Of a stretch of 64,000 nt of DNA, positions 7,296 to 26,376 are shown piece by piece. Both the position numbers and the translations under genes were made by a program. How positions within the stretch are numbered: the first letter of the stretch is position 1; every line of letters begins with the position of its first letter. This DNA is from Minisyncoccia bacterium (GTDB lineage Bacteria > Patescibacteriota > Minisyncoccia > UBA6257 > 2-01-FULL-56-20). Under the pieces are notes generated by a model. The model made no database searches. It saw only the letters and a list, made by a program, of their open reading frames with translations, and was not told where the DNA came from. Location of the stretch: assembly GCA_050008535.1 (NCBI GenBank), contig JBEKML010000001.1, positions 260,633 through 324,632 on the forward strand. Reading direction: 5' to 3'.

Positions 7296-7323
7296 CGAAT
7301 CCGGCTCTAGAGCTGAGAAATTA

Positions 7324-7710
7324 TCACCTATAAACGAAACGTTTGCGCGCAATTTCCTTGCAATTATATCCACTTAAGTCAAAAGCTAGTGGTGGCGCTG
7401 GAGCCAGTTCTGGCTGGCGTTGATTCGTAATCGGGTTCCCGTCTGCGTCGAGGACCGAAAGATTGCCATCAAATCCCGTGCCTGTTCCCACTAAATAAAC
7501 CACGCTCCATAATTTTGTGCATTTTTGCACAAAACAAATAGGCGCACTCTGTTCTTGTGAACACGCTTCGGCAACATTCCGTGGAGTCTGCCACGGTAAT
7601 CGGTGATGATAATCGACGAAAGCTATGAAGATTATGACAACGCCTAAGATTATCAAAACAAGCCATAGCCTTCTCGACTTCGGGCGACTAGTGCTAGGCG
7701 AACCCTCCAT
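7324..7710 (-). CDS. hypothetical membrane-anchored protein
   Basis: 128-aa ORF with an N-terminal TM (LWLVLIILGVVIIFIAF), co-directional with the upstream surface-protein gene. Confidence 0.4.
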   Translation of the reverse strand: MEGSPSTSRPKSRRLWLVLIILGVVIIFIAFVDYHHRLPWQTPRNVAEACSQEQSAPICFVQKCTKLWSVVYLVGTGTGFDGNLSVLDADGNPITNQRQPELAPAPPLAFDLSGYNCKEIARKRFVYR

Positions 7711-7797
7711 GAAGTCATTGTATCATTATTGCTCCTCCCCTAGAATCGTTTGAACATCGTCGCAGGCTTCCCGCAGGATTATATAGGACTTCGCCGC

Positions 7798-9386: not shown

Positions 9387-10109
9387 CTATTCCAGCGCTC
9401 CGACAAAAACCTTTTGTAGGATTTCGCTTTTTATAATAGAAGTTGGGCTCCCTTCGGCGACAACCTTCCCCTTGTCAAGCACGTACCCGCGATTCACGAT
9501 TTCAAGAAGCGATTTGATATTATGCTCTACAATAAATATCGCCGTTTTGTGCCGTTCGTTAATGCGCTTCACGAGCTCAAAAATTTCCCTCACGAGCTTG
9601 GGAGCCAACCCCAGCGATGGCTCGTCCAGGAGCAATACTTTCGGATCCGTCATAAGCCCGCGCGCCAGAGCCAACATCTGTTGCTGGCCGCCCGAGAGCG
9701 TTCCGCCTCTCGCCTTCCGTTTTTCCCTCAACGCCGGGAATGTTTTCATGATCTCTTCTATCCGGCGTTTAAGTTCCGCTTTGTCGCCGACGATAAATCC
9801 GCCGACTTCCAGATTTTCCTCTACGGTGAGATTTGTGAAAACGCGCCGTCCCTGCGGAACGAACGCCACCCCCCGTTTCACCATCTCGTGCGATACGGGC
9901 ATTATGCGCTGTTCGTGAAAAAGAACCTCGCCCGAAGATATCGGCGCGAGGCCAAAAATGGTTTTCAAAACGGTGGATTTTCCGGCGCCGTTGGGGCCCA
10001 TAAGCGCCACCATCTCGCCCTCGTCAATCGCCACACTCGCTCCGTCCAGGGCCTTGACGCCGCCATAATGGACGTGGATGTTTCGAAGTTGTAATAAAGT
10101 TTCATTCAT
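9387..10109 (-). CDS. livF: branched-chain amino acid ABC transporter ATP-binding protein LivF
   Basis: Walker A GPNGAGKST, ABC signature LSGGQQQ, 240 aa. Confidence 0.9.
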   Translation of the reverse strand: MNETLLQLRNIHVHYGGVKALDGASVAIDEGEMVALMGPNGAGKSTVLKTIFGLAPISSGEVLFHEQRIMPVSHEMVKRGVAFVPQGRRVFTNLTVEENLEVGGFIVGDKAELKRRIEEIMKTFPALREKRKARGGTLSGGQQQMLALARGLMTDPKVLLLDEPSLGLAPKLVREIFELVKRINERHKTAIFIVEHNIKSLLEIVNRGYVLDKGKVVAEGSPTSIIKSEILQKVFVGALE

Positions 10110-10117
10110 GGCTTCGC

Positions 10118-10850
10118 TTATTCCCCAAGATACGCCTCGATGACCTCCCGCGCCCTGAGGACCTCTTCTGGTTTTCCTTCGGCCAGAAGTTTCCCGCCGT
10201 CCATCACGAAAACATGATCCGAAAGCTTCCGCACCAATTCCATGTTGTGCTCTATAAGAACAACTGTTTTACCAGCGGCGCGAAATTCTTCCAGGAGAGA
10301 AACAACAAGCTTCACAATTTCCGGGAAAAGCCCCGCAAAGGGTTCGTCTAATAATAAAACCTCCGAATTCATTGCGAGCACTCGCGCAATCTCCAGAAGC
10401 TTTCTCTGGCCATAGGAACAATTAGCGGCAATTTCATTTCGCTTTTCCCACAACCCGACTTTTTTGAGAATTTCTTTCACCTGCGAAAGATGAAACTTCG
10501 TATGTTTCGCCGCAAGGGCGGGAAACACCCCCCGCTCCGTTAAGATCACAAGGATGTTATCCAAGACCGTCATTTGATTGAAAAGCCGGACTTCTTGGAA
10601 TGTGCGTGTTATGCCAAGCGCGGCAAGTTCGGGCGAGGATACTTTGCGAAACAACTCGCCCCCCACCACAATTAATCCGCCATCCATTGGATAAATTCCG
10701 GTCAAAACATTAACAAACGTGGATTTGCCGCTTCCGTTCGGGCCTATAATGCTGGTAATCTTTCCTTTTTCAAACGAGAGCGAAAGATCGTCCACTGCGT
10801 GGACCCCCCCCAAAGTGCTTCGCAAGATTTTTTGTTTCCAGGATGTTCAT
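10118..10850 (-). CDS. livG: branched-chain amino acid ABC transporter ATP-binding protein LivG, interrupted by a +1 frameshift in a G8 homopolymer (sequencing error or pseudogene)
   Basis: N-terminus MNILETKNLAKHFGG is in one frame and the rest (VHAVDDLSLSFEKGKITSIIGPNGSGKST...) in another. The frames join if the C8 run at 10804-10811 is read as C7. Confidence 0.8.
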
Positions 10851-10854
10851 GGCG

Positions 10855-11724
10855 TCATCCCAATTTGTATTCTCCGATGAACCCCTGCGGGCGGTAAAGC
10901 ATAAGAAGAACCAGAAGAAGCCCATACACGAGCTGGCGCATCTGCGCCGCAATATCCTCTGAAAAACCGATAAAGCGAAGCGCCTCGGGCAATATGGTCA
11001 GAACCAACGCACCGACAAGAGAGCCATTCAAATTCGCTGCGCCTCCCAAAATGACAATGGAAAATATGAAGGCGGACGCCATGACGTCGAATGAGGAGGG
11101 TGCGATAAACGTAAGATACGAAGCAAAAAGCGATCCGGCGACCGCCGCGAAAATGGCGGCGATGGAAAAAACCGCGAGCTTGTAATGGAGCGTATGGTAG
11201 CCGAAGATTGCAATAGCTTTTTCATCTCCACGAATGGCTTTTAATACCCTGCCAAACGACGAACGGACGATGAAACGGCAGAGAAAATAAACGGCGACAA
11301 GAACAAGAAAACACAAGAAAAGGAACTGTCCGTTGGTTGCGAAATGGATCCCAAAAAGCACGGGGCGTGGAATGCCAGGGATTCCTAGGGGGCCCCGCGT
11401 CAAAGATCCCCAGTTTGTAAAAATCCCGAACAGAATGAGATTCACGCCAACCGTCCCCAGAACATAGTAATCCCAGCTCAAGCCACGCAAAATTCTTCCC
11501 GTCAGGTATGCAAGTGCTCCTGCGACAACCATTCCCACAAAAACCGAAAGGAAAAAATTTGCGTGGTAGTCAACCGTTAAAATCGCCGTCGCATACGCGC
11601 CTACTCCGAAAAATGCGGCGTGCATGATGGACACCAGCCCCGTGTAACCGACGACCAGATTAAGTCCAAGCGCAAGGATCGCGTAGATGCAAAAGAGAAT
11701 GAGGATGTGGATGAGATACGGCAT
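10855..11724 (-). CDS. livM: branched-chain amino acid ABC transporter permease LivM
   Basis: 289-aa polytopic permease. Its stop lies 5 nt before the livG start. Confidence 0.85.
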   Translation of the reverse strand: MPYLIHILILFCIYAILALGLNLVVGYTGLVSIMHAAFFGVGAYATAILTVDYHANFFLSVFVGMVVAGALAYLTGRILRGLSWDYYVLGTVGVNLILFGIFTNWGSLTRGPLGIPGIPRPVLFGIHFATNGQFLFLCFLVLVAVYFLCRFIVRSSFGRVLKAIRGDEKAIAIFGYHTLHYKLAVFSIAAIFAAVAGSLFASYLTFIAPSSFDVMASAFIFSIVILGGAANLNGSLVGALVLTILPEALRFIGFSEDIAAQMRQLVYGLLLVLLMLYRPQGFIGEYKLG

Positions 11725-12603
11725 TTATTTTTTGGAAACGCCCCGCAAAATTCCCTGCGGACGGAAAATGAGAAAAAGGACGAGGAGCCCAATACCAACA
11801 GATGGTTTCCATACCGTATTTATTTTCCAGACGCCGAAGTTTTCCGCGAACGCGAGGAGAAACGCCCCAAGCACTCCGCCGTATACATTGCCGATACCGC
11901 CAATGATGGATGCTATCGCGGCCTCAAGGAGAAAGATAAGTCCCATTGTCGGGAAAATGCCGATATCGAAACCGACCAAAATCCCGGCTAAACCGGCGAT
12001 GGCACCGCCGAGAAAAAAAGTTATCGATATGATGCGGTCGGTGTTGATGCCGATGATTTTAGAAACCTCCTCGTCGTCCGAGATCGCCCGGATTGCCCGC
12101 CCGAAGGCAGATTTTTTGAGAACAAGCGTAAGGCCAAAAAGAACCGCCAACGCCGTAATGACGGTAATTATCTGCACAGAAGTGATAAAAGTACCGGCAA
12201 CGGCGTATACCGACGCGGGGGAATTCTGGTCGGCTAAGCTCTGATACTGCGAGGTGAAAAAAATTGCAATCGCCGCCTGCAGAAGAAACATAAGGCCAAG
12301 CGAAGCGACGACGTGTACCAAGCTTGTCGCCTTGCGCCGCCGCAGTTTCCTGAAAACGAGAACATCAGAAAGGTATGAGACGATGCCGGCCGCTATAATT
12401 GCAAGCGGTATACCGAGCCACAACGGCAGGGAATTCAGTCGGCAAAATAAGAACACGCCATACGCCCCGACGACCGCGACGGCGCCGTACGCCATATTGA
12501 GAAATTTTGTAATGCCAAAAATCACGTTAAACCCCAGAGCGAGAATGGCATACGCCGCCCCCGCGATAATGGCGTTCATCACCAACTGATTCAGGATGCC
12601 CAT
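11725..12603 (-). CDS. livH: branched-chain amino acid ABC transporter permease LivH
   Basis: 292-aa polytopic permease, directly abutting livM. Confidence 0.85.
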   Translation of the reverse strand: MGILNQLVMNAIIAGAAYAILALGFNVIFGITKFLNMAYGAVAVVGAYGVFLFCRLNSLPLWLGIPLAIIAAGIVSYLSDVLVFRKLRRRKATSLVHVVASLGLMFLLQAAIAIFFTSQYQSLADQNSPASVYAVAGTFITSVQIITVITALAVLFGLTLVLKKSAFGRAIRAISDDEEVSKIIGINTDRIISITFFLGGAIAGLAGILVGFDIGIFPTMGLIFLLEAAIASIIGGIGNVYGGVLGAFLLAFAENFGVWKINTVWKPSVGIGLLVLFLIFRPQGILRGVSKK

Positions 12604-12655
12604 ATGCGCCTTATTCTAACTTTCACAGGTCCGAAAAACAACCGCAAAAACGTGA

Positions 12656-13798
12656 TTATTGCCCAAGCTCCACTATTTTCCCTCCTTCGTATCCCTTAAT
12701 GATGTATTTCGCTGTTACGTCGTCGCCGTTCTGGTCTATCGTATACGTGTCGGCAATGCCTTTGTAGGTGAAATTGTTCTTCAACGCGGCGTTGATTTTC
12801 TCGCTATTCGCTCCGACGCTTTGCATAATCCCAGCTAGCGCTTTCAGAATATCGTAGGCACGTGGAGAATAAGCGATGAGTTGTGGCCCGCCCACCAGCT
12901 TCGCCATCTTATCAATGAATGATTGCGGTAATTGCTCGTTGGCTGGTATCACGTACATCGCACCATCCGCAGCCGATCCTGCTTCGGCAGGGATTTTGGG
13001 ATCATCCCAGCCGTCCGCTCCTATAAGTTTAACCTTGAGCCCCAGCTGTTTTATCTGTTTTAAGCCGATAATGGTTTCACCCGTATATGCCGGGAAATAC
13101 ACCACGTCCGGATTCGCGGCCTTGATTTTCGTAACTTGCGTCCGAAGGTCCTGTGCGCCCTGCTGGAAGCCCTCCTCGTCAACGACGCTAACGCCAAGCT
13201 CTCCAAGGCGTTGTTTCACAACATCATGGAGTCCAACGCACCAGTCGCTCAAACAATAGAGAATTGCCACCCTTTTTGCTTTGAGCGTATTGGCAATATA
13301 TTCAGCAGCAAATTTCCCCTGTAAATTGTCAGAGGGGACAAAACGATACTTATAATCTCCTGCTGTCGTAATCTTTGGGTTCGTGGAACCGTAACTGATG
13401 ATCGGAATATGGGCGGCTTGGGCAATGGGAATCGCCGCAAGCGTTTCAGAAGAACAGAGGCCGCCGATAATAGCGGTTACTTTATCCACATTCACAAGTT
13501 TATTGGCTGCATCCGCCGCAGCAGTCGGATCACATTTGCTGTCTTCGGCGATTACTTCAACTTGCCGGCCGTTTACACCGCCGGCGCTATTTATTTCATC
13601 CCGCGCTATTTGGACCGCCGCCAATCCATTTTCTCCGACCGATGCCTCGTCCCCCGTCAACGGTCCCATAAACCCGATTCTAATCGGGCCTGATGAAGTC
13701 TGGCTTGGGCTTCCAGTCCCACTAAACAATGAATATCCCGCCCAGATCACAATTGCCACGATAATAATTCCCGCAACCCACTTATTTTTTGTGCTCAT
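12656..13798 (-). CDS. ABC transporter periplasmic substrate-binding protein (LivJ/LivK-like)
   Basis: N-terminal signal/TM, type-I periplasmic binding fold (GFMGPLTGDEASVGE...GGVNGRQVEV...), first gene of the liv operon. Confidence 0.85.
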   Translation of the reverse strand: MSTKNKWVAGIIIVAIVIWAGYSLFSGTGSPSQTSSGPIRIGFMGPLTGDEASVGENGLAAVQIARDEINSAGGVNGRQVEVIAEDSKCDPTAAADAANKLVNVDKVTAIIGGLCSSETLAAIPIAQAAHIPIISYGSTNPKITTAGDYKYRFVPSDNLQGKFAAEYIANTLKAKRVAILYCLSDWCVGLHDVVKQRLGELGVSVVDEEGFQQGAQDLRTQVTKIKAANPDVVYFPAYTGETIIGLKQIKQLGLKVKLIGADGWDDPKIPAEAGSAADGAMYVIPANEQLPQSFIDKMAKLVGGPQLIAYSPRAYDILKALAGIMQSVGANSEKINAALKNNFTYKGIADTYTIDQNGDDVTAKYIIKGYEGGKIVELGQ

Positions 13799-14162: not shown

Positions 14163-14951
14163 ATGGATGCGCAAATGGAAAGGTTCAGAAATGCTCTGAT
14201 TTCCATAGGATTCTCCGCTAAAGAGGCCGAGGTGTATTTGGCGCTTCTTGACATCGGGAAGGGAACGGTTTCCCAGATTACACGTAAGGCGAAACTGAAC
14301 CGCACTACTGGTTATGATATTCTGGATAAACTTGTGGGACTTGGCCTCGCGCGCATTTCCGGAAAAGAGCCGAAGCAAGAATACGCGGTGGAGTCGCCCA
14401 CCGGCATCGAGAATATCGTAAAAAACAGAATCGCAGAGGCAAGCAAGAATGCCGAAATAATGCTCAAGCTCATACCCCAGCTCTCCTCCATCCATAATGT
14501 CGCGGGACGGCCGCAAATACGCTTTTATGAGGGTATCGAGGGTTTGAAACAGGTTTACGAGGACACGCTAACTTCCCATGAGCCTATCCGGGCTTGGGCT
14601 ACGGTTGAAGATATGTATAAGGGATTACCCGGCTATTTCCCAAAGTATTACAAACGGCGTGCCGCGCACAACATTTCGATCCGCGCCATTGTTCCCCGAA
14701 CCGAAATGGGACTGGAACTTGTGAAACGCGATAAAGAAGAAGCTCGCGAGACGGCTCTTATTCCGCTCGACAAGTTTTATTTCTCGCCGGAGATAAACGT
14801 GTACGACAACAAGATTATGATCGCTTCGTGGCGTGAAAAGCTCGGCATTATCATAGAAAGCGCCGAAATCGCGGATGCTCTGAAAAAAATATTCGAGCTT
14901 TCATGGGCGGAAGCGAAACGGCTTTCGGTCCAGCATTCGGGTATGATATAA
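14163..14951 (+). CDS. TrmB-family HTH transcriptional regulator
   Basis: N-terminal TrmB-type HTH (EAEVYLALLDIGKGTVSQITRKAKLNRTTGYDILDKLVGLGLA); divergent from the liv operon. Confidence 0.75.
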   Translation: MDAQMERFRNALISIGFSAKEAEVYLALLDIGKGTVSQITRKAKLNRTTGYDILDKLVGLGLARISGKEPKQEYAVESPTGIENIVKNRIAEASKNAEIMLKLIPQLSSIHNVAGRPQIRFYEGIEGLKQVYEDTLTSHEPIRAWATVEDMYKGLPGYFPKYYKRRAAHNISIRAIVPRTEMGLELVKRDKEEARETALIPLDKFYFSPEINVYDNKIMIASWREKLGIIIESAEIADALKKIFELSWAEAKRLSVQHSGMI

Positions 14952-14990
14952 TGGTTGGGATAGCTTTTTCTTTTTTACCTTCGTCTTCTT

Positions 14991-15476
14991 ATGGAAAACG
15001 CAATAGTAAGGAATGTAATTCCGAATTCGGTTCTGCCGTACCCTGAAGGTTTTTGGGACCGGATCAAATATTTTCTTTGGAAGATCATTACGCCCTGCCA
15101 CCCGTATGGCAGGGATGCGCTGCTCAAGCTTCACATCATCCATCACGAGGGCAGGCAGGATTATGTGATCGGCAGGATGGCGCCCGGCGTCAAGCTTGAG
15201 GATTTTCTCAGATATCTTCATACGCAGGGATTTTCGAACCACTTTATCGCATGGGAGGACGATGGCCAGGTTGTGAGCTTGCGGAAGCTCGTGAATTTTA
15301 AATGGCAGTACCATCTGCGCATCTTCGGCGACGGCGAGGTGCGCGGCCACTATGAACGTACGCCAGAAGGGCATCCGATATGGCACCTCAAAGAAATAGG
15401 GCGGGAGGAACGGCGCAAGGACTTTTTGCGGTTTATAGGCGACTGGGCGGTTCCTAAATCTCGGCGGGAAAGATAA
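14991..15476 (+). CDS. hypothetical protein
   Basis: 161 aa of globular-looking sequence; preferred over the overlapping minus ORF, which is K/R-rich and ends in a poly-K tail. Confidence 0.5.
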   Translation: MENAIVRNVIPNSVLPYPEGFWDRIKYFLWKIITPCHPYGRDALLKLHIIHHEGRQDYVIGRMAPGVKLEDFLRYLHTQGFSNHFIAWEDDGQVVSLRKLVNFKWQYHLRIFGDGEVRGHYERTPEGHPIWHLKEIGREERRKDFLRFIGDWAVPKSRRER

Positions 15477-16641
15477 GGTCCCACACCGCGGCGGCGACGT
15501 TGCGCGCCGGACCCCTGAACGGATAGTGATGGAGGTCTATGAACGGCAAGCTGTTGCATTCTATGACGCCGCATTTTTGGTTATGCCACGGGCGCGCCAT
15601 GTCTTCCATCATGAGGTCAACGCCGACAAGGGGATCGTTGAGCACCTCTGCGATCTTCACGAACAGCTTTTTATTTTCGGGATGAGCGTTCACGATCTCC
15701 GTGGTTGAGGCGCCGCAGGCGCGGCTCACTTTTGGATGAAGCACGACCGCAGCGCCTTTTGGGGGGACCGAAGCAAGCGAAAGATTTTGTTCCTTAAGCA
15801 TCGCGCGCGATTCTTCGCCGAGTTCTACCATGTGGAAGATCGGTCCGCGCCGGAGCGGATTTTTATTTTCTTCGCGGACGAGCTCGCGGACGGTGCGGCG
15901 TCCGTCGCCCGTGACGGAGGGCGGTTCGCGGCGCATGATGCCCGCGATCTTTCTGCCGACGAGCGTCACGCGGAACACGGACCCGGGAAGCTCCTCTTCA
16001 ATAACCACCCAAGGAGACAATTCTTTTGCCTTTAAAAATGCGCGGCGGAGCGTTGCAATGTCCGTGATGTGCAGATAGGTATGGCGGCTCCGCGAGCCGA
16101 GGTTCGGTTTTACGACGACGGGGCCGCCGATGGAAACGAACGTTTCTTCCGCACGGGCGTATGTCGTGCACGTTTTTCCGCGGGGTACGGGGATGCCGGC
16201 CTCCGAAAATCGTTTGATGATGATCCCTTTGTCGTCCATCCAATTAAGCGAGGCATTATGGGCCGCGCGCGGCCGGGGAAGGCCGTCAAAAGCGATGGTA
16301 TCGTCTTTGTAGGTAGCGAAGAAGAATTCCCGTGCGAGGCCGAACGGTCGGAATTCTTTCATGACGATGCCGCGCCGTTCCGCTTCTTCCCAGAGCACGC
16401 GCGCCCGCCAATTCGTTTTTTCATCTGGTTTCACGACGATCGTTCCGAGGCGTGCCGCCCTAAGACAGCGCACAAGGGGCGGTGCCATGCGGCCCAAGCG
16501 GAACGGCGCAAGGACGGGTTTTGCGCCGCGCAAGATAAGGTCAAAGGGCTTCGCGAGGCGGTCAATGAGCACGTCCATCCTCACCGACCAGCGTTCCACC
16601 CAATGGGGTACCGCGATGGGGCCGCAATCGGAGCAGTGCAT
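15454..16641 (-). CDS. ATP-grasp ligase resembling the N-terminal ATP-grasp domain of cyanophycin synthetase (CphA-like), standalone
   Basis: VVVKPNLGSRSRHTYL...DGRRTVRELVREENKNPLRRGPIFHMVELGEESRAMLKEQNLSLASVPPKG matches the CphA/RimK ATP-grasp pattern; no Mur-ligase domain. Confidence 0.65.
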   Translation of the reverse strand: MHCSDCGPIAVPHWVERWSVRMDVLIDRLAKPFDLILRGAKPVLAPFRLGRMAPPLVRCLRAARLGTIVVKPDEKTNWRARVLWEEAERRGIVMKEFRPFGLAREFFFATYKDDTIAFDGLPRPRAAHNASLNWMDDKGIIIKRFSEAGIPVPRGKTCTTYARAEETFVSIGGPVVVKPNLGSRSRHTYLHITDIATLRRAFLKAKELSPWVVIEEELPGSVFRVTLVGRKIAGIMRREPPSVTGDGRRTVRELVREENKNPLRRGPIFHMVELGEESRAMLKEQNLSLASVPPKGAAVVLHPKVSRACGASTTEIVNAHPENKKLFVKIAEVLNDPLVGVDLMMEDMARPWHNQKCGVIECNSLPFIDLHHYPFRGPARNVAAAVWDLIFPAEI

Positions 16642-16642
16642 A

Positions 16643-18166
16643 TTATGCGAATCCCGGGAAAAAATCGGTTTTGATGCGGCGCGCGGGAACGCCCATCGTG
16701 CGGAGCGTTCGGTGGAAGGCGGTGATCATGGCGTGCGTGCCGGAAATATAGAACATGCGTTCATGATAGTCGGGGATCGTCTGCGCGACAAGTTTCGCGT
16801 TGATGCGGCCGCGGTAATACCGTTCGTCGGGGAGCGTTTCGTTCGCATCAGTGATGGTATAGATCGTCCGCATGCCGAGTTGCGCCTCCGCCTCGTCAAA
16901 AACTTCGCGGTAGGCGATCTCGGCCACGGTGCGGTTGGAATAGAGAAGTACGACGTCGCGCCGTTCGCCGCAGTCAGTGAGATACTTGATCATGCTGCGG
17001 AAGGGCGTTATGCCGATGCCGCCCGCGACAAAGACCAGTTTCCTCCGCTTGTTCCGCGGGAGCGTGAAGTCCCCGGCGAGCTGCCCGCCCACGATCAGGT
17101 CGCCTGGCTTCATCACAAGTAAATTCTTCTTGAAGCTGCTCGGGGGATCGTAAAATTTTATGCCGAGCCGGAGATCGGCCTCGGTGGGCGAAGAAGCGAT
17201 GGTGAAGTAGCGGCGGTTGCCGCGGCTGTCGCTCTTTTTGTGCGCGAGCGTCCACTCCATGTATTGGCCCGGGCGGAAGTGCGGGGGCTCTTCGTTTGCG
17301 AATACGAAATCAAGCATATCCGTGCCGATCTTTTCTTTCTGTTTTAGCTTAAGGACATATTTCCCTTTGGGGCTTACGAGATAGGAAAAGACATTGCCGG
17401 CGATAAGCGCAAGTTCCGGCGTGGAATAGACGGAGCCCACGTGGATCGCGGGCGCAAAGAGGAAACCGACGAGCGCACCGTAGATGATGCGGAGCGTCCG
17501 CGTCGGCGGCGTGGTCAAGGGCTCCGTGATCATGATGAACGCGAAAAAGAAGATCGGCGCGTGGAGAAACGCTTTTTGGAGCGTGACAAATGGGTCGGAA
17601 GCGGTGTTGGTGAACACGATGGTCAAGAGGCCCACGGCCAAAAAGCTTGCCACGAGATCAAATCGTCGTATCTTCCGCGTGACCAGGAGCCCGCCCACAA
17701 GCACAAAGGCGAGCATTGGCAAATTGCCGCCGACCCACCAGCTTGCGGATTGGTTGATGGTGAATGCGGTCAAGGCCACCGCGAATGCCGCTGGATTGAA
17801 AAGGTGTTTCTTTTTTATGGCAAGGAGGTATTTGCACGCCATCGCCCAGATCGCGGCCCAGACAAGGAAGGAAATGCCCGTCGGGTCCTGCGGCGCCACG
17901 GGCGTGATGATGAGCGCCAAGATGAGCGCCGTGATATAGACGGATTCGGCGTTCGGCTGCGCGCCGAAGGTCTTTGCGAAGAGTTGGTTCGTGGTCCAGG
18001 AGACAAGAACGAGAACGGCAGTGGAGAACACAATTGCAGTCGGACTATAAGGGAGAATGCCCGCTGCGCCGAGAACCACTGCGATCGCGAGAAGCGCGGC
18101 CAAAAAATAAAATACCAGGCGGTACATCGTGATCCGGTTGAGAAATTGGTCGATGAAATTAATCAC
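16643..18166 (-). CDS. membrane flavoprotein: N-terminal NqrB/RnfD-like polytopic domain fused to ferredoxin-NADP-reductase-like FAD/NAD(P)-binding domain
   Basis: N-terminal half has multiple TMs. C-terminal RYFTIASSP (FAD) and FVAGGIGITPFRSM (NAD) motifs. Overlaps the apbE start by 8 nt. Confidence 0.75.
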   Translation of the reverse strand: MINFIDQFLNRITMYRLVFYFLAALLAIAVVLGAAGILPYSPTAIVFSTAVLVLVSWTTNQLFAKTFGAQPNAESVYITALILALIITPVAPQDPTGISFLVWAAIWAMACKYLLAIKKKHLFNPAAFAVALTAFTINQSASWWVGGNLPMLAFVLVGGLLVTRKIRRFDLVASFLAVGLLTIVFTNTASDPFVTLQKAFLHAPIFFFAFIMITEPLTTPPTRTLRIIYGALVGFLFAPAIHVGSVYSTPELALIAGNVFSYLVSPKGKYVLKLKQKEKIGTDMLDFVFANEEPPHFRPGQYMEWTLAHKKSDSRGNRRYFTIASSPTEADLRLGIKFYDPPSSFKKNLLVMKPGDLIVGGQLAGDFTLPRNKRRKLVFVAGGIGITPFRSMIKYLTDCGERRDVVLLYSNRTVAEIAYREVFDEAEAQLGMRTIYTITDANETLPDERYYRGRINAKLVAQTIPDYHERMFYISGTHAMITAFHRTLRTMGVPARRIKTDFFPGFA

Positions 18167-18914
18167 GGGTGTATTTTTTGAATCCTTTTGTCATGATTGC
18201 CACTTTGTTTTTTTCTATCATATATCCTTCTGTCCCCTTGAATCGTTCTATAAAGCGGATCCCTTCTCGCCCCATCGCGAAGGCGGCGGTCGCGAGGCGG
18301 TCTGCCTCATAGATATTCGGGCCGATGACGGTGAGGCTCACGATTTCATCCACCGCCCTGCCGGTCTTCGGATTATAGATGTGTTCGCCGCGGATGTAGG
18401 TGCCCGAGGTCGCGACACCCTCGTTGCTCACATACACCACCTTCACATTTTCTTTTTCATTGAACGGATTTTTTATTCCTACCGCCCATTTTTTCCCGTC
18501 GGCATTCGTGCCGCACGTTTGGATGTCCCCGCCGGCATCCACATAGAAGTTTTTGCAGCCGCGCTCTTCCATTTGCTTTGCGGCGTTCCAGATCGCCCAC
18601 CCCTTCACGAGCCCCGACGGATCGTATTTGCCATCCGGCCGCCTGATGTCAAAATAGCCGTCCGCGAGTTGCTTTGTTTCTTCGGCGAGCGAAAAAATGG
18701 TTTTCATGTCGTCGCTTGCCTCATCCGGTTTGAGCCGGCCGTCGTTTATCGCCGTGATCTCGCTCGTTGGTTTGTATGTGCTGAATTTTTCGTCAATATA
18801 CTTGAAATAATCGAAGGCTGCGCGGATGATTTCTTCTGTTGCGGCCGGTGTTGCGAAGTGGTCCACGACCTCCACGGTGACCGGCATGCCCATAATAACC
18901 CTCGTTTCTTTCAT
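18159..18914 (-). CDS. apbE: FAD:protein FMN transferase ApbE
   Basis: 251 aa, ApbE family signature (VDAGGDIQTCG...GVATSGTY). Confidence 0.85.
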   Translation of the reverse strand: MKETRVIMGMPVTVEVVDHFATPAATEEIIRAAFDYFKYIDEKFSTYKPTSEITAINDGRLKPDEASDDMKTIFSLAEETKQLADGYFDIRRPDGKYDPSGLVKGWAIWNAAKQMEERGCKNFYVDAGGDIQTCGTNADGKKWAVGIKNPFNEKENVKVVYVSNEGVATSGTYIRGEHIYNPKTGRAVDEIVSLTVIGPNIYEADRLATAAFAMGREGIRFIERFKGTEGYMIEKNKVAIMTKGFKKYTRD

Positions 18915-18971
18915 ACGAGAACGTTGCTCGATTTGGTGCTGATTTTCGGAATATCCATTACAATCTAACCT

Positions 18972-21554
18972 ATGATATCACGAAAGAAAAAGAACGTCCG
19001 CCTCCCGGCGCATATCGTTCCCATGCGGTACGACATTACCTTAAAGCCGGATCTTGAAGCGTTCACTTTCGAGGGAAAAGAAACCATCCATCTTTCTTTA
19101 AAAAAAGCGGCCAAGAAGATCACATTGCACTCGAAGGAGCTCGATATACGATCCGCGGAGATCGTGAGGGACGCCGGAAAAGGATCCGCGAAAGAATTCG
19201 CGTTGCGGATCAGCTATGACGAAAAAGCGGAGACCGCCACATTCGCTTTTCCAAGAAAGATACCGCGCGGCGATCTTGAATTGCGGCTCATCTTCAGCGG
19301 AATATTAAACGACAAAATGCGCGGTTTTTACCGGAGCCGGTACGAGGTCCGCGGCAAAACCCGCCACTTGGCCACTACGCAATTTGAGGCAACCGATGCG
19401 CGGCGCGCCTTTCCTTGTTTTGACGAGCCCGCCCTGAAGGCCAAGTTTGATGTCACTCTCGTTGTTCCGGAGGAGAGCACCGCTATTTCAAACACCCTGC
19501 CCGTCGCGATAAGCGAGCACGAGGGGGGTTATAAGGTGGTCAAGTTCGCCACGACGCCCGCGATGTCCACCTATCTTCTGGCTTTCATCGTCGGTGATTT
19601 TGAATCAATAGAAAAGAAAACAAAGGAAGGAGTGCTCGTGCGTGTGTGGACGACGCCCGGCAAAAAACACCAGGCGGCGTTCGCGCTTGATTGCGCCGTA
19701 CGGACCCTTTCGTTTTTCGGCGGATATTTCGATATTCCCTATCCCTTGCCCGTTCTTGACCTCATTGCCATTCCCGATTTTGCCGCCTTTGCGATGGAGA
19801 ACTGGGGCGCCGTTACCTATCGGGAAATCGCCCTACTTGTTGACCCGGAACATTCTTCGGCGGCTACCAGGCAGCGGGTGGCGATGGTTATTGCTCATGA
19901 ATTGGCGCACCAATGGTTCGGAAATCTGGTGACTATGGAGTGGTGGACGCACCTGTGGCTGAACGAAGGGTTCGCTTCCTATATGGAGTACTTTGCCGTT
20001 GATCGTCTTTTCCCCAAATGGGACACACAGACCCAATTTGTCATAGGGAGGCTCGGCGACGCCCTAATGCTCGACGCACTCATGAACACGCATCCGATCG
20101 AAGTAGACGTGCATCATCCGGATGAAATAGGGGAGATCTTTGATGACATCAGCTATTCAAAGGGGGCAAGCGTTATTCACATGCTTGCAGATTACCTTGG
20201 CAAAAAGGATTTCCGTGACGGCCTTCGCTATTATCTTAAAAAACACAGTTACGCGAACACTTCCACTGTTCATCTTTGGAAGGCGTTCGAAAAAATATCG
20301 GGCAAGCCGGTTACGAAGATGATGAGTGGCTGGACACGAAAGCCCGGCTATCCGCTCCTTACTGTTTCGGAAGGAAAGAACGGCCTCGCGGTGCGCCAAG
20401 AGCGATTCTTTGCGAATCCGGTTTCGAGATCGCGCAGCAAGGCTGCGGGGCCATGGTTCATTCCGGTAAGTGTCATGACGGATCGGCAAAGACAGAAGAA
20501 ACAATTCCTCATGAAAGAGAAAAACATATCCCTCCCAAAATACGGCGGGGCTTGGTTTAAATTGAACGCGGGCGAGGCGGGAGTTTTCCGAACGAGCTAT
20601 CCCGAAAACATTTTGAAGGCATTTAAGGAACCACTTCGAACCGGGCGGTTTGATGCGCGGGACCGCTTGGGCTTGATCCGGGACGTGATGGCGCTTGCGG
20701 GAGCGGGAAAAATCGCCACGACGGACGCTCTAGACTTCGCTGCATTCTATAAAAAGGAAACCGATTATGCCGTTTGGACGGAGTTGGCTTCAGACCTTAA
20801 TACCGTGGCCCTCCTCATCGCGGATGAACCCTGTGCGGAAAATTATCACCGCTTTGCCCGGGATATTTTTGCCGGCATCGCAAAAAAAGTTGGATGGCAG
20901 AAGAAAAGAGGGGAAGACCATCTGCAAACACTCCTGCGCGGCCTCGTTCTCCTCCATTTCGGTATGCATGGCGATCCAGAAACGATCGCCCGCGCGAAAA
21001 AAACGTTCTCCCGTGCGACGCACGTAAAAAATTCCCTTGATCCTGATGTAAGAATGGTGGTCTACGCCATTGTTGCAAGATACGGAGGGCGGAAAGAGCA
21101 GGCGAAACTTATGAAAATGTATAGGTCGGCGGCGCTTCACGAAGAAAAAAACAGGATCGGAAGGGCGCTTGCGGCTTTTAATGATAAAAATTTGCTCAAA
21201 AAAACCCTTTCGTTTTCATTGTCGGGGCATGTTCGGCTGCAAGATGCGGTGGGCATTATTTCTTGGGTGTGGGTCAATCCTGCGGGGAAGGATTTGGCAT
21301 GGTCTTTCGTCAAGGCCAACTGGAAAACATTTTTGGAACGTTACGGCGGGGGGCACGATCTTGCGCATCTCCTCGCTTTGGCTAGCTGTTTCACTTCATT
21401 GAAAAAGGCGAAAGAAATAGAACGATTTTTTAAAAAGAATCCGGCTCCGGGAGCGGCGCGAACCATAGCGCAAGTCCTGGAAAAAATACGTGGGAACGCT
21501 GCCTGGCTCGCGCGCGACCAGAAAGCGATTGAAAAACATTTAACAGAATTTTAA
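18972..21554 (+). CDS. pepN: aminopeptidase N (M1 family)
   Basis: HELAHQWFGNLVT zinc motif plus NEGFASYME, GAMEN-like exopeptidase motif (FAMENWGA), 860 aa. Confidence 0.9.
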   Translation: MISRKKKNVRLPAHIVPMRYDITLKPDLEAFTFEGKETIHLSLKKAAKKITLHSKELDIRSAEIVRDAGKGSAKEFALRISYDEKAETATFAFPRKIPRGDLELRLIFSGILNDKMRGFYRSRYEVRGKTRHLATTQFEATDARRAFPCFDEPALKAKFDVTLVVPEESTAISNTLPVAISEHEGGYKVVKFATTPAMSTYLLAFIVGDFESIEKKTKEGVLVRVWTTPGKKHQAAFALDCAVRTLSFFGGYFDIPYPLPVLDLIAIPDFAAFAMENWGAVTYREIALLVDPEHSSAATRQRVAMVIAHELAHQWFGNLVTMEWWTHLWLNEGFASYMEYFAVDRLFPKWDTQTQFVIGRLGDALMLDALMNTHPIEVDVHHPDEIGEIFDDISYSKGASVIHMLADYLGKKDFRDGLRYYLKKHSYANTSTVHLWKAFEKISGKPVTKMMSGWTRKPGYPLLTVSEGKNGLAVRQERFFANPVSRSRSKAAGPWFIPVSVMTDRQRQKKQFLMKEKNISLPKYGGAWFKLNAGEAGVFRTSYPENILKAFKEPLRTGRFDARDRLGLIRDVMALAGAGKIATTDALDFAAFYKKETDYAVWTELASDLNTVALLIADEPCAENYHRFARDIFAGIAKKVGWQKKRGEDHLQTLLRGLVLLHFGMHGDPETIARAKKTFSRATHVKNSLDPDVRMVVYAIVARYGGRKEQAKLMKMYRSAALHEEKNRIGRALAAFNDKNLLKKTLSFSLSGHVRLQDAVGIISWVWVNPAGKDLAWSFVKANWKTFLERYGGGHDLAHLLALASCFTSLKKAKEIERFFKKNPAPGAARTIAQVLEKIRGNAAWLARDQKAIEKHLTEF

Positions 21555-21578
21555 TGCCCTGCGTGGTACCATGCGGGG

Positions 21579-22712
21579 ATGAAAAATAAAATTATTTCTG
21601 CCGCAACTGCGGCGGCGGTTTTCGTGGTCGGGTCGTGGGGTGTTTTGGGGCCAGTGCGCGTGGCAGATGCCACTTACCACTTCTCCGGATTTTTGGGCAA
21701 GCCGCCGTTGCATATTTTCCGTTCCGCGCAAAAGGCTCCGGCGGGCCTTACGCCCGCAGAGGTAAAAAGAATATATAATATCCCGTCCAAGGGCGGACAG
21801 GGGACTATTGCGATCATTGATGCCTATGACGCGCCGAACGTCGAAAAGGACCTGGCTGTATTCAGCGATACCTATGGGTTGCCCGCGTGCACGACAAAGA
21901 ACGGTTGTTTTGAAAAACATACAATGGTAAGTTCCACGGCCACGAACGGCGGATGGGCATTGGAAGAATCACTTGATGTTGAGTGGGCGCATGCGATCGC
22001 GCCCCAGGCGAAGATATTGCTTGTGGAAGCGAAGACCGCAAGCGGGGCGAATCTGCTCGCCGCGATCGACTACGCGGCCTCAAGGAAAGACGTAGTGGCG
22101 ATTTCCATGAGCTGGGGCGGCGCCGAATTTTCAGAGGAAACATCGCTTGATTCACATCTAGTGAGCAAGTCGGGCGCCGTATTTTTTGCGGCATCCGGCG
22201 ACGACGGCGCGGGCGTTGAATGGCCGGCATCGTCGCCGAACGTGGTAGGCGTCGGTGGCACGTCGCTTGAATTATTTAAAAGCGGCGCTTTTATTTCGGA
22301 ATCGGCGTGGTCGGGAAGCGGCGGCGGCGTGAGCGCCTACGAACCGGAGCCGGACTATCAGAAGGCCTACAGCATCCCGAAGGCGAACGGCCATCGCGCA
22401 GTTCCCGACGTTGCATATAACGCCGATCCACAGTCGGGCTACGCGGTGTATAGAACAACAGGTTCGTCAAAGAACGGATGGTATACGGTTGGCGGCACTT
22501 CTGCCGGAGCGCCGCAATGGGCAGCGATCCACGCGCTCAGCCTTTCAGTTTCTTTGCTGAAGCTCTATGCTGATAAATCATCCGCCGACACGCTCAAATT
22601 TTTCCGCGACATCACAAGCGGCGCGAACGGCACCTGCAAATATTACTGCAATGCCAGGGCGCGGTATGACTACGTGACCGGCCTCGGGGTCCCGCAGACG
22701 GCGGCATTTTGA
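21579..22712 (+). CDS. secreted S8/S53 (subtilase/sedolisin-like) serine peptidase
   Basis: Signal peptide, AIIDAYD (Asp), GGTSAGAPQWAA (Ser) catalytic motifs. Confidence 0.75.
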   Translation: MKNKIISAATAAAVFVVGSWGVLGPVRVADATYHFSGFLGKPPLHIFRSAQKAPAGLTPAEVKRIYNIPSKGGQGTIAIIDAYDAPNVEKDLAVFSDTYGLPACTTKNGCFEKHTMVSSTATNGGWALEESLDVEWAHAIAPQAKILLVEAKTASGANLLAAIDYAASRKDVVAISMSWGGAEFSEETSLDSHLVSKSGAVFFAASGDDGAGVEWPASSPNVVGVGGTSLELFKSGAFISESAWSGSGGGVSAYEPEPDYQKAYSIPKANGHRAVPDVAYNADPQSGYAVYRTTGSSKNGWYTVGGTSAGAPQWAAIHALSLSVSLLKLYADKSSADTLKFFRDITSGANGTCKYYCNARARYDYVTGLGVPQTAAF

Positions 22713-22821
22713 AGCAAATCAGGCAATTTTTTGGGGTTCATAAACGCTTGGAAATTTGGGCAAAAATATGCTAAAATAAGATATCCGTTCGAGCGGGATT
22801 ATTTTTTGAAACGGCCTGAAT

Positions 22822-24891
22822 ATGCCCGAAAAACAAGCGAAAAAAGAGGACAAAAAGGATAATAATAAAGGTAGCGCGTCGTACGCCGCGAAGGATATTT
22901 ACGTCCTTGAAGGGCTTGAGCCCGTGCGCCGCCGGCCGGGAATGTATATCGGTTCCACGGGAACGATCGGCCTGCACCATCTGATCTGGGAGGTGGTGGA
23001 CAATTCCATTGACGAGGCGATGGCCGGACACGCCAAGAACATTGTGGTGGAGCTTTTGCCGGGGAACAAAGTGAGCGTGACGGACGACGGGCGCGGCATC
23101 CCGGTGGATATCCACAAGCAGACGAAAAAATCGGCGCTCGAAACCGTGCTCACCACGCTCCACGCGGGCGGCAAATTCGGCGGCGAATCGTACAAGGTTT
23201 CGGGAGGGTTGCACGGCGTGGGCGTGTCCGTGGTAAACGCGCTTTCCGACTGGCTGAAGGTTGAAGTGGAGCGCGATGGCGGATTGTTCGTTCAGGAATA
23301 TGAGCGCGGAAAGCCGAAATATAAAGTGAAAAAGATCGGCGCTTCCAAGCGGCACGGCACGAAGACCACCTTCTCGCCCGACCCGCAGATTTTTTCCGAA
23401 ATGGGGTTCGACGACAAGACGATTCTGGACCACCTGCGCCAGCAGGCGTATCTCACGAAGGGGGTGCGCATCAGTGTATTTGACCGGCGCGAGAAGGTGC
23501 CGATCTTCTATGGATTTTGTTTTGAAGGAGGACTGCTCTCGTTTGTAAAATTCCTGGCGCAAAAAAAGAATGCGCTTCATGAAGACGTTTTTTATACCGA
23601 CAAGGAGCAAAATAAAGTGGAGGTGGAGGCGGCATTTCTTTTTGTTGACGACACAAAGACCCAGGAAATGAGCTTTGCGAACAATATTTACACGCCGGAC
23701 GGCGGCATGCACCTGACCGGCTTCCGCTCGGCGCTTACCCGTTCTTTGAACGCCTACGCACGCGCCGAAGGTTACCTTAAGGAGAAAGATGAAAATCTTA
23801 CGAGCGACGACGTGCGCGAAGGGCTTATCGCGGTGATCTCCGTGAAGCTCCGCGAGCCGCAGTTCGAGGGTCAGACGAAGGCAAAGCTCGGCAACCCCGA
23901 GGCAAGGACGGGAACGGAGACGGTCATCAATGAGTCCCTGAAAGAATTTTTGGAAAAGCACCCGCAGGAGGCGAAGGCGATCATCGCGAAGGTGCTCTTG
24001 ACCGCGAAGGCGCGGCTCGCGGCGCGGGCGGCGCGCGAGACCGTGCTGCGCAAGGGCGCGTTCGAAGGGCTCACGCTGCCGGGTAAGCTTGCGGATTGCA
24101 TTTCGAAGAGCGCGGCGGAGTCGGAGCTTTTCATCGTGGAGGGCGATTCGGCCGGCGGCACGGCGAAGCAGGGGAGGAATCGCCACACGCAGGCGATCCT
24201 GCCGCTGCGCGGGAAGATCTTGAACGTGGAGCGGGCGCATCTTGATAAGATGCTTGCGAATGCGGAGATCCGCGCGCTCATTGTGGCGATCGGCACGGCG
24301 ATCGGCGAGGAATTCGACTTGAGCAAGCTTCGTTATCACAAAGTCATTATCATGACGGATGCCGACGTGGACGGCGCGCATATCCGGACGCTGCTCCTCA
24401 CGCTCTTCTACCGCTATTTCCGGTCGGTAGTGGATGGCGGGTATTTGTACATCGCCCAGCCGCCGCTCTATCGCGTCCAGCTCGGGAAAGCATTCCGCTA
24501 CGCCTTCTCGGACGCGGAAAAGGACAAAGCGATCGTGGAATTGCAGAAAGAAAAACCGGCGCAAAAATCTTCTTCAAAGAAAAAGACTGCGGCGGCGGAA
24601 GAGGCCGGAATGGAAGCGGCCGAAGGCGAAGGGGCCGTTGCGGAAGGCGAGGGCGACAGCAAGCGTTTGCCGAACATCCAGCGCTACAAAGGCTTGGGAG
24701 AGATGAATGCCGAGCAGCTTTGGGAAACAACGATGAATCCGGAACGCCGCATCATGAAGCAAGTGACCGTTGACGACGCCGAGAAGGCCGATAAGCTTTT
24801 CGATACCCTGATGGGCGATGCCGTAGAGCCGCGCAAGAATTTCATCCAGGCCCACGCGGCGGCCGTGCAGAATCTGGACCTTCAGGCATAA
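22822..24891 (+). CDS. gyrB: DNA gyrase/topoisomerase subunit B, with a K/E/A-rich low-complexity insertion near the C-terminus
   Basis: GHKL ATPase motifs (EVVDNSIDEAMAG, GLHGVG), toprim EGDSAGG, PLRGKILNVE, 689 aa. Confidence 0.9.
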   Translation: MPEKQAKKEDKKDNNKGSASYAAKDIYVLEGLEPVRRRPGMYIGSTGTIGLHHLIWEVVDNSIDEAMAGHAKNIVVELLPGNKVSVTDDGRGIPVDIHKQTKKSALETVLTTLHAGGKFGGESYKVSGGLHGVGVSVVNALSDWLKVEVERDGGLFVQEYERGKPKYKVKKIGASKRHGTKTTFSPDPQIFSEMGFDDKTILDHLRQQAYLTKGVRISVFDRREKVPIFYGFCFEGGLLSFVKFLAQKKNALHEDVFYTDKEQNKVEVEAAFLFVDDTKTQEMSFANNIYTPDGGMHLTGFRSALTRSLNAYARAEGYLKEKDENLTSDDVREGLIAVISVKLREPQFEGQTKAKLGNPEARTGTETVINESLKEFLEKHPQEAKAIIAKVLLTAKARLAARAARETVLRKGAFEGLTLPGKLADCISKSAAESELFIVEGDSAGGTAKQGRNRHTQAILPLRGKILNVERAHLDKMLANAEIRALIVAIGTAIGEEFDLSKLRYHKVIIMTDADVDGAHIRTLLLTLFYRYFRSVVDGGYLYIAQPPLYRVQLGKAFRYAFSDAEKDKAIVELQKEKPAQKSSSKKKTAAAEEAGMEAAEGEGAVAEGEGDSKRLPNIQRYKGLGEMNAEQLWETTMNPERRIMKQVTVDDAEKADKLFDTLMGDAVEPRKNFIQAHAAAVQNLDLQA

Positions 24892-24905: not shown

Positions 24906-25283
24906 ATGAAACCGTTTCTTAGAATCCTTTTTTTCCTCGCCCTTGCGGGACTTCTTTTTTCCGGCTACTTGAGCGCTGTCAAGCTTTTCTCCGGCTCGTG
25001 CGCTTTCAATGAATCCTGTCCGTATTTCCTCGGCTATCCGGCTTGCTGGTATGGTTTCGCCATGTATCTTTTTATGTTCATTACGGCCAGCCTTGGATTC
25101 GCCGGGAAGATATCGCCCGCCGCTACGCTCAAGGCGAGCGCGGTGGTGTCGTTCATCGGGATACTCTTCGCGGGCAGTTTTGTTGTCCAGGAACTGGTAT
25201 TTTCCACCTGCTTCTACGGCCTTGTTTTTTACATTGCTATTTTTATAACGTCCCTTGTTGGTCTTTTAAGGCGCCATGTATGA
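24906..25283 (+). CDS. small 4-TM membrane protein with a CX6C loop (weakly VKOR-like)
   Basis: 125 aa, hydrophobic, SCAFNESCPYF motif, no CxxC active site. Confidence 0.5.
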   Translation: MKPFLRILFFLALAGLLFSGYLSAVKLFSGSCAFNESCPYFLGYPACWYGFAMYLFMFITASLGFAGKISPAATLKASAVVSFIGILFAGSFVVQELVFSTCFYGLVFYIAIFITSLVGLLRRHV

Positions 25284-26376
25284 GTGGTTCTTAAGGCCGA
25301 TCCTTTTTTGTTTTGATCCGGAGCGCATCCATGATTTTTTTATTTGGGTGGGCGAAACGCTCGGGAATTTTTCTCTCGGACGCCGGCTCACAGGCGTTTT
25401 TTGCGCATATGATCATCCCGCTCTCCATACGCGGGTCTTAGGCATTGATTTCAAGAATCCCGTAGGGCTCGCGGCGGGCTTTGATAAAGATGTTCGCCTC
25501 ACGGAGATCATGCCGTCCGTCGGATTCGGCTTTGTGGAAGTGGGCGCCATAACGCACCATCCCTATGGAGGCAACAAGGGGCTCCGGCTCGCCCGTCTTC
25601 CCGCCGACCAATCGCTTATCGTCTATTATGGCCTCAAAAACATCGGGACCGATGCGGTTCTTCACAAACTGCAGCGGCTGCATTTTTCCATTCCCGTAGG
25701 CGTGAACATTGCAAAAACGAATCGTGCGGACATCAAAGGGGAAAAATCGGTGGAGGATTATGCGGCAACGTATCGTATGCTCGGAAAATATTTTTCCTAT
25801 ATAACCCTGAATGTTTCCTGTCCGAACGCGCAGGACGGATGTATGTTCCAGGACCCGCGCCTTTTGGAAGGCCTCTTAGCCGCGATCGCGAAAGAAAAAA
25901 AGACGTGCCCGGTGCTCCTCAAGATTTCCACACACCTTACCAAGAAGGAGGTGGACGACATTCTTGCGGTCGTTAAGAAATATCCTTTCGTTGATGGGTT
26001 CGTCGTCGGCAACCTTGCGAAGCAGCGCGATATTCTCAATTTAAAATCTTCGCGGGAGCATCTGAACCGCATTCCCGACGGTGGCATTTCGGGAAAGCCC
26101 ATCCGCGAACTTTCCACAAATCTTATCCGGCATATCTACCGCGCGGCCAAAGGAAAATATACGATCATCGGCCTCGGCGGCATCTTTACCGCAGAGGATG
26201 CCTACGAAAAGATCAAAGCCGGCGCATCCCTAGTGCAGATCATCACAGGTCTTATCTACAGAGGGCCCACGGCGGTCAAAAAGATCAACCGGGGGCTTGT
26301 GGAACTCCTCGCGCGCGACGGCTATGCGCACATAGGCGAGGCGGTGGGAAAGGAAGCGCGGGGTAATCTTGCATAA
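25276..26376 (+). CDS. pyrD: dihydroorotate dehydrogenase (quinone), class 2
   Basis: N-terminal membrane-association helix, FMN-binding TIM-barrel motifs (GLGGIFTAEDAYEKIKAGASLVQ). Confidence 0.9.
   Translation: MYEWFLRPILFCFDPERIHDFFIWVGETLGNFSLGRRLTGVFCAYDHPALHTRVLGIDFKNPVGLAAGFDKDVRLTEIMPSVGFGFVEVGAITHHPYGGNKGLRLARLPADQSLIVYYGLKNIGTDAVLHKLQRLHFSIPVGVNIAKTNRADIKGEKSVEDYAATYRMLGKYFSYITLNVSCPNAQDGCMFQDPRLLEGLLAAIAKEKKTCPVLLKISTHLTKKEVDDILAVVKKYPFVDGFVVGNLAKQRDILNLKSSREHLNRIPDGGISGKPIRELSTNLIRHIYRAAKGKYTIIGLGGIFTAEDAYEKIKAGASLVQIITGLIYRGPTAVKKINRGLVELLARDGYAHIGEAVGKEARGNLA

Follow-up and report, generated by a model that had tools for sequence, protein, structure and literature searches.

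Flavinylation clusters coding for a protein in which an NqrB/RnfD domain at the N terminus is joined to a PF00175 domain at the C terminus were catalogued by Meheust 2021 as "NQR/RNF-like systems" (PMC8238504). Huang 2024 described a two-subunit complex whose second subunit is an anchored, NqrC/RnfG-like FMN_bind protein, and in their AlphaFold-Multimer model the covalently attached flavin mononucleotide (FMN) of FMN_bind reaches the flavin site of the membrane subunit (PMC11334425). The Nqr/Rnf-like system is common in Patescibacteria, Chloroflexi, Actinobacteria and some Proteobacteria. Here, we analysed a 64,000-nucleotide (nt) stretch of DNA from a Minisyncoccia bacterium (contig JBEKML010000001.1, positions 260,633 to 324,632; hereafter the window), which carries a gene for a homolog of ApbE, the flavin adenine dinucleotide (FAD):protein FMN transferase, followed on the same strand by a gene for a NqrB/RnfD-like-FNR fusion protein. 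We consider it probable that this locus is a member of the catalogued Nqr/Rnf-like electron-transfer system that has lost the gene for its flavinylated subunit.

The apbE gene (18159..18914, minus strand) has an ATG start and encodes a short form of the enzyme with 251 residues and no signal peptide, and the fusion gene (16643..18166, minus strand) has a GTG start and encodes 507 residues. The end of apbE (...TAC ACC CGT GAT TAA) and the beginning of the fusion gene (GTG ATT AAT TTC) share 8 nt at 18159..18166 of the minus strand (GTGATTAA), an overlap consistent with translational coupling; by an approximate start-position method, apbE and the fusion gene overlap by ~4-8 nt in 32 of 58 related loci. 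Homologs of the fusion protein start at the same M-x-x-x-I-D-x-F-L-N position, which speaks for the GTG start. At E ≤ 1e-10 the full fusion has more than 7500 protein matches, most of them from Patescibacteria (Minisyncoccia, Paceibacterota) and usually annotated as "RnfABCDGE subunit D" or "ferredoxin-NADP reductase", and the N-terminal domain alone matches 1698 representative clusters, mainly ~500 residues long. Since both proteins have many full-length homologs, the two open reading frames (ORFs) are genuine genes and not chance ORFs.

The N-terminal hydrophobic half of the fusion (residues 1-265; 17372..18166, minus strand) matches PF03116 (NQR2_RnfD_RnfE) with 33.8 bits against a gathering score of 27.7; the match spans only profile positions 171-285 of 296, the last 40%, and the fold aligns over ~248 residues. 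An AlphaFold2 model built on 45 homologs (mean predicted local distance difference test score, pLDDT, 85.8) predicts ten membrane helices in a NqrB/RnfD fold. With the FNR module taken as cytosolic, the loops hold eight Lys/Arg residues on the inside and none on the outside, and the domain was therefore assigned a topology with both termini inside and the loop at residues 138-148 facing outward. The C-terminal half (residues 270-507; 16646..17359, minus strand) is a cytosolic FNR-type module for FAD and NAD(P)H with the motifs RRYFTIAS, GGIGITPF and YISGT; it matches Pfam NAD_binding_1 at E 5.9e-16 and FAD_binding_6 weakly, as well as flavohemoglobin and NqrF domains in the PDB. The presence of an N-terminal PF03116 membrane domain and a C-terminal PF00175 domain in one protein is a defining feature of the Nqr/Rnf-like system, and three of the four such features are found in the window, namely this domain fusion, the adjacent apbE and a membrane domain devoid of the acceptor Thr. 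The fourth, an FMN_bind subunit in the cluster, is not.

An earlier note on this stretch, made from the letters alone, had anticipated much of this. Its calls of ApbE and of a NqrB/RnfD-like-FNR fusion are upheld by the Pfam and PDB matches and the fold, and its 8-nt overlap by the sequence as read. The topology prediction that it had proposed gave ten helices with the N and C termini inside and the candidate loop 138-148 on the outer face. It had also placed the pair among the described flavinylation-associated redox systems and suggested a comparison with the catalogued ApbE-associated families, and that comparison leads to the NQR/RNF-like system (PMC8238504, PMC11334425). The small-genome host that it supposed is likewise confirmed, since the closest relatives are Patescibacteria/Minisyncoccia.

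To what extent the window departs from its family is apparent from an operon survey of 80 genome loci and 44 metagenome loci (numbered with the prefix L), 107 of which had enough upstream sequence. The family includes the Ktedonobacteria, the group of the published model (L028, L037). The usual gene order is FMN_bind, apbE, fusion, and the FMN_bind proteins are anchored at the N terminus, often contain a linker rich in Pro/Thr and carry SGAT or SGAS close to the C terminus. A FMN_bind gene detectable by hidden Markov model (HMM) lies just 5' of apbE in 94 of the 107 loci, a divergent anchored or lipoprotein partner ending K[VI][SA]G[SA]SLT..GF occupies that position in nine more (Saccharibacteria, Actinobacteria and others), and in one further locus, L123, the partner had been missed by the filter. 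The partner is absent 5' of apbE only in L059, whose gene order differs, in the window and in L095. We assign the FMN_bind proteins to the extracytosolic side because of the published model, the Pro/Thr-rich linkers and the actinobacterial lipoboxes; a positive-inside count on their anchors, which is crude since ORF starts were partly over-extended, gave a richer N-flank in 29 and a richer C-flank in 19.

Several observations on the partners were made in the course of the survey. The divergent family was seen 5' of apbE in L044, L051, L053-L057, L061, L064, L068, L070, L073, L075 and L077-L082. Its members are 150-210 residues long, are anchored by a transmembrane segment or are lipoproteins, end K[VI][SA]G[SA]SLT..GF..A...IK in place of SGAT, and are paired with a longer ApbE (~285-310 residues) that is likewise without a signal peptide. 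The actinobacterial partner in L082 starts MAHTTRRRTLG..., an RRR-containing N terminus that is possibly a twin-arginine translocation (Tat) signal. L021 has a tandem pair of FMN_bind genes (6955-7955), each with SGAT, upstream of the fusion gene and no apbE in the 8-kb flanks.

Evidence that the window lost its partner gene comes from syntenic relatives. In L085, whose fusion protein is 74% identical, the order is gyrB, a 373-residue gene, pepN, FMN_bind, apbE and fusion, and in the window it is gyrB, a gene for a 377-residue protein, pepN, apbE and fusion. By blastn, window 22000..18997 corresponds to L085 5631..8643 and window 18917..16643 to L085 9237..11572, leaving 593 bp in L085 (with the 504-bp FMN_bind gene) against 79 bp in the window, so that ~515 bp are missing. 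The scar (18915..18996) consists of a 57-bp leader and the start of pepN where relatives hold a FMN_bind gene of ~500 bp. In a three-way DNA alignment the leader preceding FMN_bind is conserved in L085 and L084 (TTAGATTGTAA.GGATAT...CACCAAATCG...), and the window keeps this leader joined straight to the ATG of apbE (TATGAAAGAAACG). The partner is also present in the closer relative L084 (81% identity) and in L001 (71%), and neither tblastn nor the family HMM found a FMN_bind homolog anywhere in the window. Therefore, the loss is recent and lineage-specific. The earlier note had taken the pair for a minimal one-subunit module. This reading is not supported, because the family normally has two subunits with a separate FMN_bind carrier whose gene is deleted here, and the apparent minimalism is thus a matter of loss and not of design; the one-subunit condition is a derived, reduced state.

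Related loci offer further instances of missing or broken components. In L095 (VFSW01063036.1, 737-1536) FMN_bind and the fusion gene have both been lost by clean deletions in comparison with L093, L092 and L122, and the remaining short apbE is intact and shares 4 nt with the ATP-grasp gene. In L084 (1908-2662) apbE is split into two ORFs of 102 and 149 residues, either a frameshift pseudogene or a sequencing error, next to intact FMN_bind and fusion genes. Six genome loci have a fusion gene with neither apbE nor FMN_bind nearby. Together, L095, L084 and the orphan fusions indicate that components of the system can persist separately.

A working scheme for the system can be proposed from homology and the published models. 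Reduced nicotinamide adenine dinucleotide (phosphate), NAD(P)H, would reduce the FAD of the FNR module, and electrons would then cross the membrane via flavin bound non-covalently by the RnfD-like domain. The next station, in relatives, would be the ApbE-attached FMN of a FMN_bind protein docked on the outer face, from which the electrons would reach an external acceptor. In the window this last carrier is not encoded in cis, and either a partner or other ApbE substrate would come from another place in the genome, or else the pathway would be truncated and the operon decaying. We lean slightly toward supply in trans or some other role of ApbE because both apbE and the fusion gene are intact and apbE is also kept in L095, a second reduced operon. 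The locus thus represents the known system in a partner-less, possibly decaying state, and not a device designed with one subunit.

A number of points weigh against this interpretation. The deletion is known from one assembled sequence, and only 64 kb of the genome are visible, so that the partner may be encoded in trans. The electron path and the non-covalent membrane flavin are predictions based on the models of Huang 2024. In addition, an ApbE lacking a signal peptide fits poorly with an extracytosolic substrate, and the partners in this family are anchored or carry lipoboxes.

A different outcome is that the operon is a non-functional relic whose two genes are carried along neutrally until they decay as the genome is reduced, which we regard as rather unlikely. 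The stepwise losses in relatives described above, of both FMN_bind and fusion in L095, of an unbroken apbE in L084 and of both companions in the six fusion-only genome loci, are what a decaying operon would leave, and in the published model the FMN of the partner occupies the outer flavin site of the membrane domain, so that loss of the partner should break the chain. However, the two remaining genes in the window are of full length and have kept every catalytic and cofactor motif, the promoter-proximal leader has been preserved, and the orphan fusions and orphan apbE found intact in other genomes suggest that each can be used independently.

The ApbE of the window bears on how such a locus might still work. 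It matches PF02424 with 152 bits (E 2.5e-44; cut-off 25.6) and the NCBIfam ApbE model at E 9e-22, under the cut-off of that model, and it aligns with ApbE structures in the PDB from E. coli (4xgw, E 3e-21), Listeria, Salmonella and Vibrio at E 1e-16 to 3e-21. The catalytic Ser-His-Asp set, which is S241/H257/D285 in the Vibrio cholerae enzyme (PMC12052999), has its counterparts in S170 (TSG), H178 (GEHIYNP) and D205 (EADRLAT), which align to the catalytic residues of E. coli ApbE with the expected Ser-to-His and His-to-Asp spacing once loop deletions are allowed for. Since this set is present and is also conserved in 70 ApbE family members, the enzyme is probably catalytically competent. The helical insertion domain (as described in PMC12052999) is ~45 residues shorter than in E. 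coli ApbE; the insert between the two halves of the T-fold is ~10 residues long in the window and 10-12 residues in 50 of the 70 family members. No signal peptide or lipobox was found on the window ApbE, whose ORF is not extendable and has seven residues before the first beta-strand motif, MGM. At least 46 of the 70 relatives likewise have a signal-less ApbE, including those of Ktedonobacteria, Mesorhizobium and Actinobacteria, and neither Meheust 2021 nor Huang 2024 comments on the missing signal peptide of the associated short ApbE.

The combination of a signal-less ApbE with an outer partner suggests that, for the family as a whole, the accepted scheme of maturation may not be complete. Speculatively, flavinylation of the partner before its export could reconcile the two; ApbE is known to accept linear tags of seven residues (PMC12052999), and a Tat signal, if that is what the N terminus of the L082 partner is, would fit with such an order; a stable association of ApbE with the fusion protein in the cytosol could, equally speculatively, account for the missing signal peptide. 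Potentially, the short ApbE is not, or not solely, the maturase of the exported FMN_bind partner and acts from the cytosol, either by pre-export flavinylation or on, or bound to, the RnfD-like/FNR protein through flavin loading or a non-canonical acceptor such as S142, although we hold this to be a long shot. If it were true, apbE and the fusion gene would form a self-sufficient module able to survive the loss of FMN_bind, as in the window; ApbE would act in a new way, and a single polypeptide would truly serve as a flavin wire across the membrane.

The earlier note had assumed that ApbE attaches FMN to the RnfD-type domain itself, and had named the flavinylation Thr/Ser motif as what to look for and its absence as evidence against the idea. 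No such motif was found in the N-terminal domain. In a profile of 40 diverse N-domains aligned to V. cholerae NqrB, residues 53-131 of the query correspond to NqrB 137-212, ending at a shared FNPA helix, and residues 143-262 correspond to NqrB 272-395. NqrB 213-271, which bears T236 with its covalent FMN, has no counterpart, and the ~60-residue loop around the covalent-FMN Thr of NqrB/RnfD is replaced by ~11 residues (132-142, ...LTAFTINQSAS, followed by WW, which is invariant in the family; 17741..17773, minus strand). The loss of the acceptor loop agrees independently with Huang 2024, who found no conserved Thr in the membrane subunit of the Nqr/Rnf-like system (PMC11334425). The candidate nearest to an acceptor is S142 (T-I-N-Q-S-A-S-W-W), which satisfies two of the four specified positions, the Ala and the terminal Ser, of the flavinylation motif D-x-x-[ST]-G-A-[ST] (PMC12052999).

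Covalent attachment of FMN at S142, with which apbE and the fusion gene would suffice for a wire of one polypeptide between NAD(P)H and the outer face, has some attractions. S142 in Q-S-A-S-W-W stands at the very place of the lost NqrB/RnfD acceptor loop, A141 does not vary, 95% of 120 close homologs have Ser or Thr at position 142, and apbE has been kept in translational coupling with the fusion gene despite the loss of FMN_bind. Nevertheless, we consider it very improbable, as position 142 is Asn in L001, L014, L015, L032 and L035 and Val, Ile, Leu, Glu, Asp, Gly or His in more distant members, and the loop lies on the outside, whereas ApbE lacks a signal peptide. S142 was therefore rejected as a cryptic flavinylation site on its motif fit, its variability in the family, the deletion of the surrounding loop and its outward position relative to a cytosolic ApbE. 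Judged from its sequence, the membrane domain of the fusion is not the target of ApbE.

Other ApbE substrates were sought in all ORFs of the window with the patterns D..[ST][GSA]A[ST] and [ST]GA[ST], and the number of matches was at chance level. The matches were of three kinds, namely GroEL (DIATVTGAT), a 511-residue surface protein (NTSSGAS, in a low-complexity linker and not conserved in homologs) and short spurious ORFs.

Little credence can be given to the explanation that the missing FMN_bind gene reflects an assembly artefact or a minority variant in a population whose organism has the three-gene operon. It draws on the single assembled sequence that serves as evidence and on the lack of an independent identical contig; a metagenome scan with ApbE for an identical allele gave a best match of 74% identity. 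On the other side, the junction falls exactly at gene boundaries with the leader and the apbE start preserved, assemblers rarely make precise gene-sized deletions in non-repetitive sequence, and an analogous clean loss is seen in the unrelated contig L095. Given the gene-boundary junction, an assembly artefact is unlikely. It is hardly credible that the N-terminal domain is a channel or transporter for solutes, like those of the Amt/Rh/urea-transporter type, and not a redox domain.

With the partner-less Nqr/Rnf-like operon as the preferred reading, its neighbourhood can be described briefly. The genes nearby encode an ATP-grasp protein, a TrmB regulator, a Liv ATP-binding cassette (ABC) transporter, PepN, the 377-residue protein and GyrB. 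The pepN gene (18972-21554) is divergent from apbE, with the 57-bp intergenic leader (18915-18971) between them, and gyrB lies at 22822-24891. The 377-residue protein has no Pfam match; relatives have a Peptidase_S8 in that place. A promoter and terminator scan of 14900-19100 gave counts near the shuffled expectation. Opposite the fusion gene, apbE and gyrB are several long antisense ORFs of 200-597 residues (16069-18968, plus strand; 22771-24564, minus strand); they lack family support and look like by-products of composition rather than genes.

The ATP-grasp gene (15454..16641, minus strand) is co-oriented with the fusion gene, begins 1 nt after its stop codon and is probably co-transcribed with it, any functional link being putative. 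It encodes a stand-alone ligase that is similar to the G domain of cyanophycin synthetase (NCBIfam match at E 3.5e-56, region 209-473, under the full-length cut-off) and has an N-terminal Cys-x2-Cys...His stretch. A gene of this kind occupies the same position only in one subclade of Patescibacteria (L001, L002, L084, L092-L095, L122), and in L095 it follows apbE directly. The ATP-grasp protein was also considered as an ApbE substrate and rejected, as its CGAST is not conserved in L001; we take this CGAST to stand at the place of the conserved Gly-rich catalytic loop of ATP-grasp enzymes.

Just past gyrB, near the redox operon, is a gene for a dihydroorotate dehydrogenase of 366 residues (25276-26376, plus strand; PF01180, E 5.5e-70) that is syntenic at the end of L085. 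If it belongs to the membrane, quinone-dependent class, it is worth asking what its electron acceptor is in a Patescibacteria genome. The window also contains a complete Liv-type operon for branched-chain amino-acid transport (9387-13798, minus strand; a binding protein, two permeases and two ATPases), adjoining the gene for the 511-residue surface protein (7798-9333), which is rich in Ser/Thr and also in Ala and has Big_2 and PG_binding_1 domains. A full-length match to the Rfam LOOT RNA motif (RF03000) is located at 62612-62747 on the plus strand (70.6 bits against a gathering score of 46.4).

The value of the locus is as a natural partner-less variant, in which apbE and the membrane reductase are still present although the flavinylated subunit is gone, as apbE persists alone in L095. 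Together with the family-wide absence of a signal peptide from ApbE, it offers a cheap experimental handle on where and on what the short ApbE acts, and it bears on whether the RnfD-like/FNR protein can move electrons without an outer flavin carrier. As small-genome Patescibacteria have few membrane redox devices, the answer may help to show by what route, if at all, they reduce external acceptors.

Comparison with characterised redox proteins sets the fusion apart from each of them in a distinct way. NqrB of Na+-NQR and RnfD of Rnf (PDB 7xk3_B, 8ahx_D, 7zc6_D) have the covalent-FMN loop and its Thr, with D-x-x-[ST]-G-A-T on the outer face, whereas the window fusion has neither and shows T-I-N-Q-S-A-S where the loop is deleted. 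Moreover, unlike NqrB/RnfD it has no accompanying A/C/D/E/F/G subunits and has an NAD(P)H dehydrogenase module of its own fused directly to it; its electron flow is presumably one-way, with no evidence of ion pumping. None of the Nqr/Rnf subunits (NqrA, C-F or RnfA, B, C, E, G) was found among the neighbouring genes of the window, the rest of which was not exhaustively annotated, or within 10 kb in relatives. With no acceptor Thr and no other Nqr/Rnf subunits nearby, the protein is not a bona fide NqrB/RnfD. The FAD/NADH domain of NqrF, the flavohemoglobin reductase and the FNR family are counterparts of its C-terminal module, but the fusion has no 2Fe-2S ferredoxin or heme domain and would hand electrons straight to the membrane flavin domain. 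The NOX/SpNOX and ferric-reductase (FRD)/MsrQ-like enzymes have a di-heme six-helix bundle, in contrast to the flavin-binding NqrB/RnfD fold here, and the membrane parts are not homologous; the fusion would nonetheless resemble these single-chain enzymes in functional outline, with a relay based on flavin instead of heme.

The ApbE shares the PF02424 fold, the Ser-His-Asp set and the A-D-x-x-x-T Mg site with the ApbE/Ftp enzymes, including the cytoplasmic ApbE of Klebsiella pneumoniae, which flavinylates a soluble fumarate reductase and is also without a signal peptide. It is ~80-100 residues shorter than the characterised ApbEs because of the cut-back helical insertion domain, and the usual neighbouring substrate of the short form looks extracytosolic, and in the window no substrate gene is nearby. 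The closest system of all is the Nqr/Rnf-like complex, which has an extracytosolic NqrC/RnfG-like FMN_bind subunit whose gene the window lacks, deleted in comparison with its syntenic relatives. The two have in common the core protein, the clustering with apbE, the Thr-less membrane domain and the range in the candidate phyla radiation (CPR). The gene pair is therefore already known in kind, having been catalogued in 2021 and modelled in 2024 and having thousands of homologs, and its partner-less state and short, signal-less ApbE are small additions to that known system.

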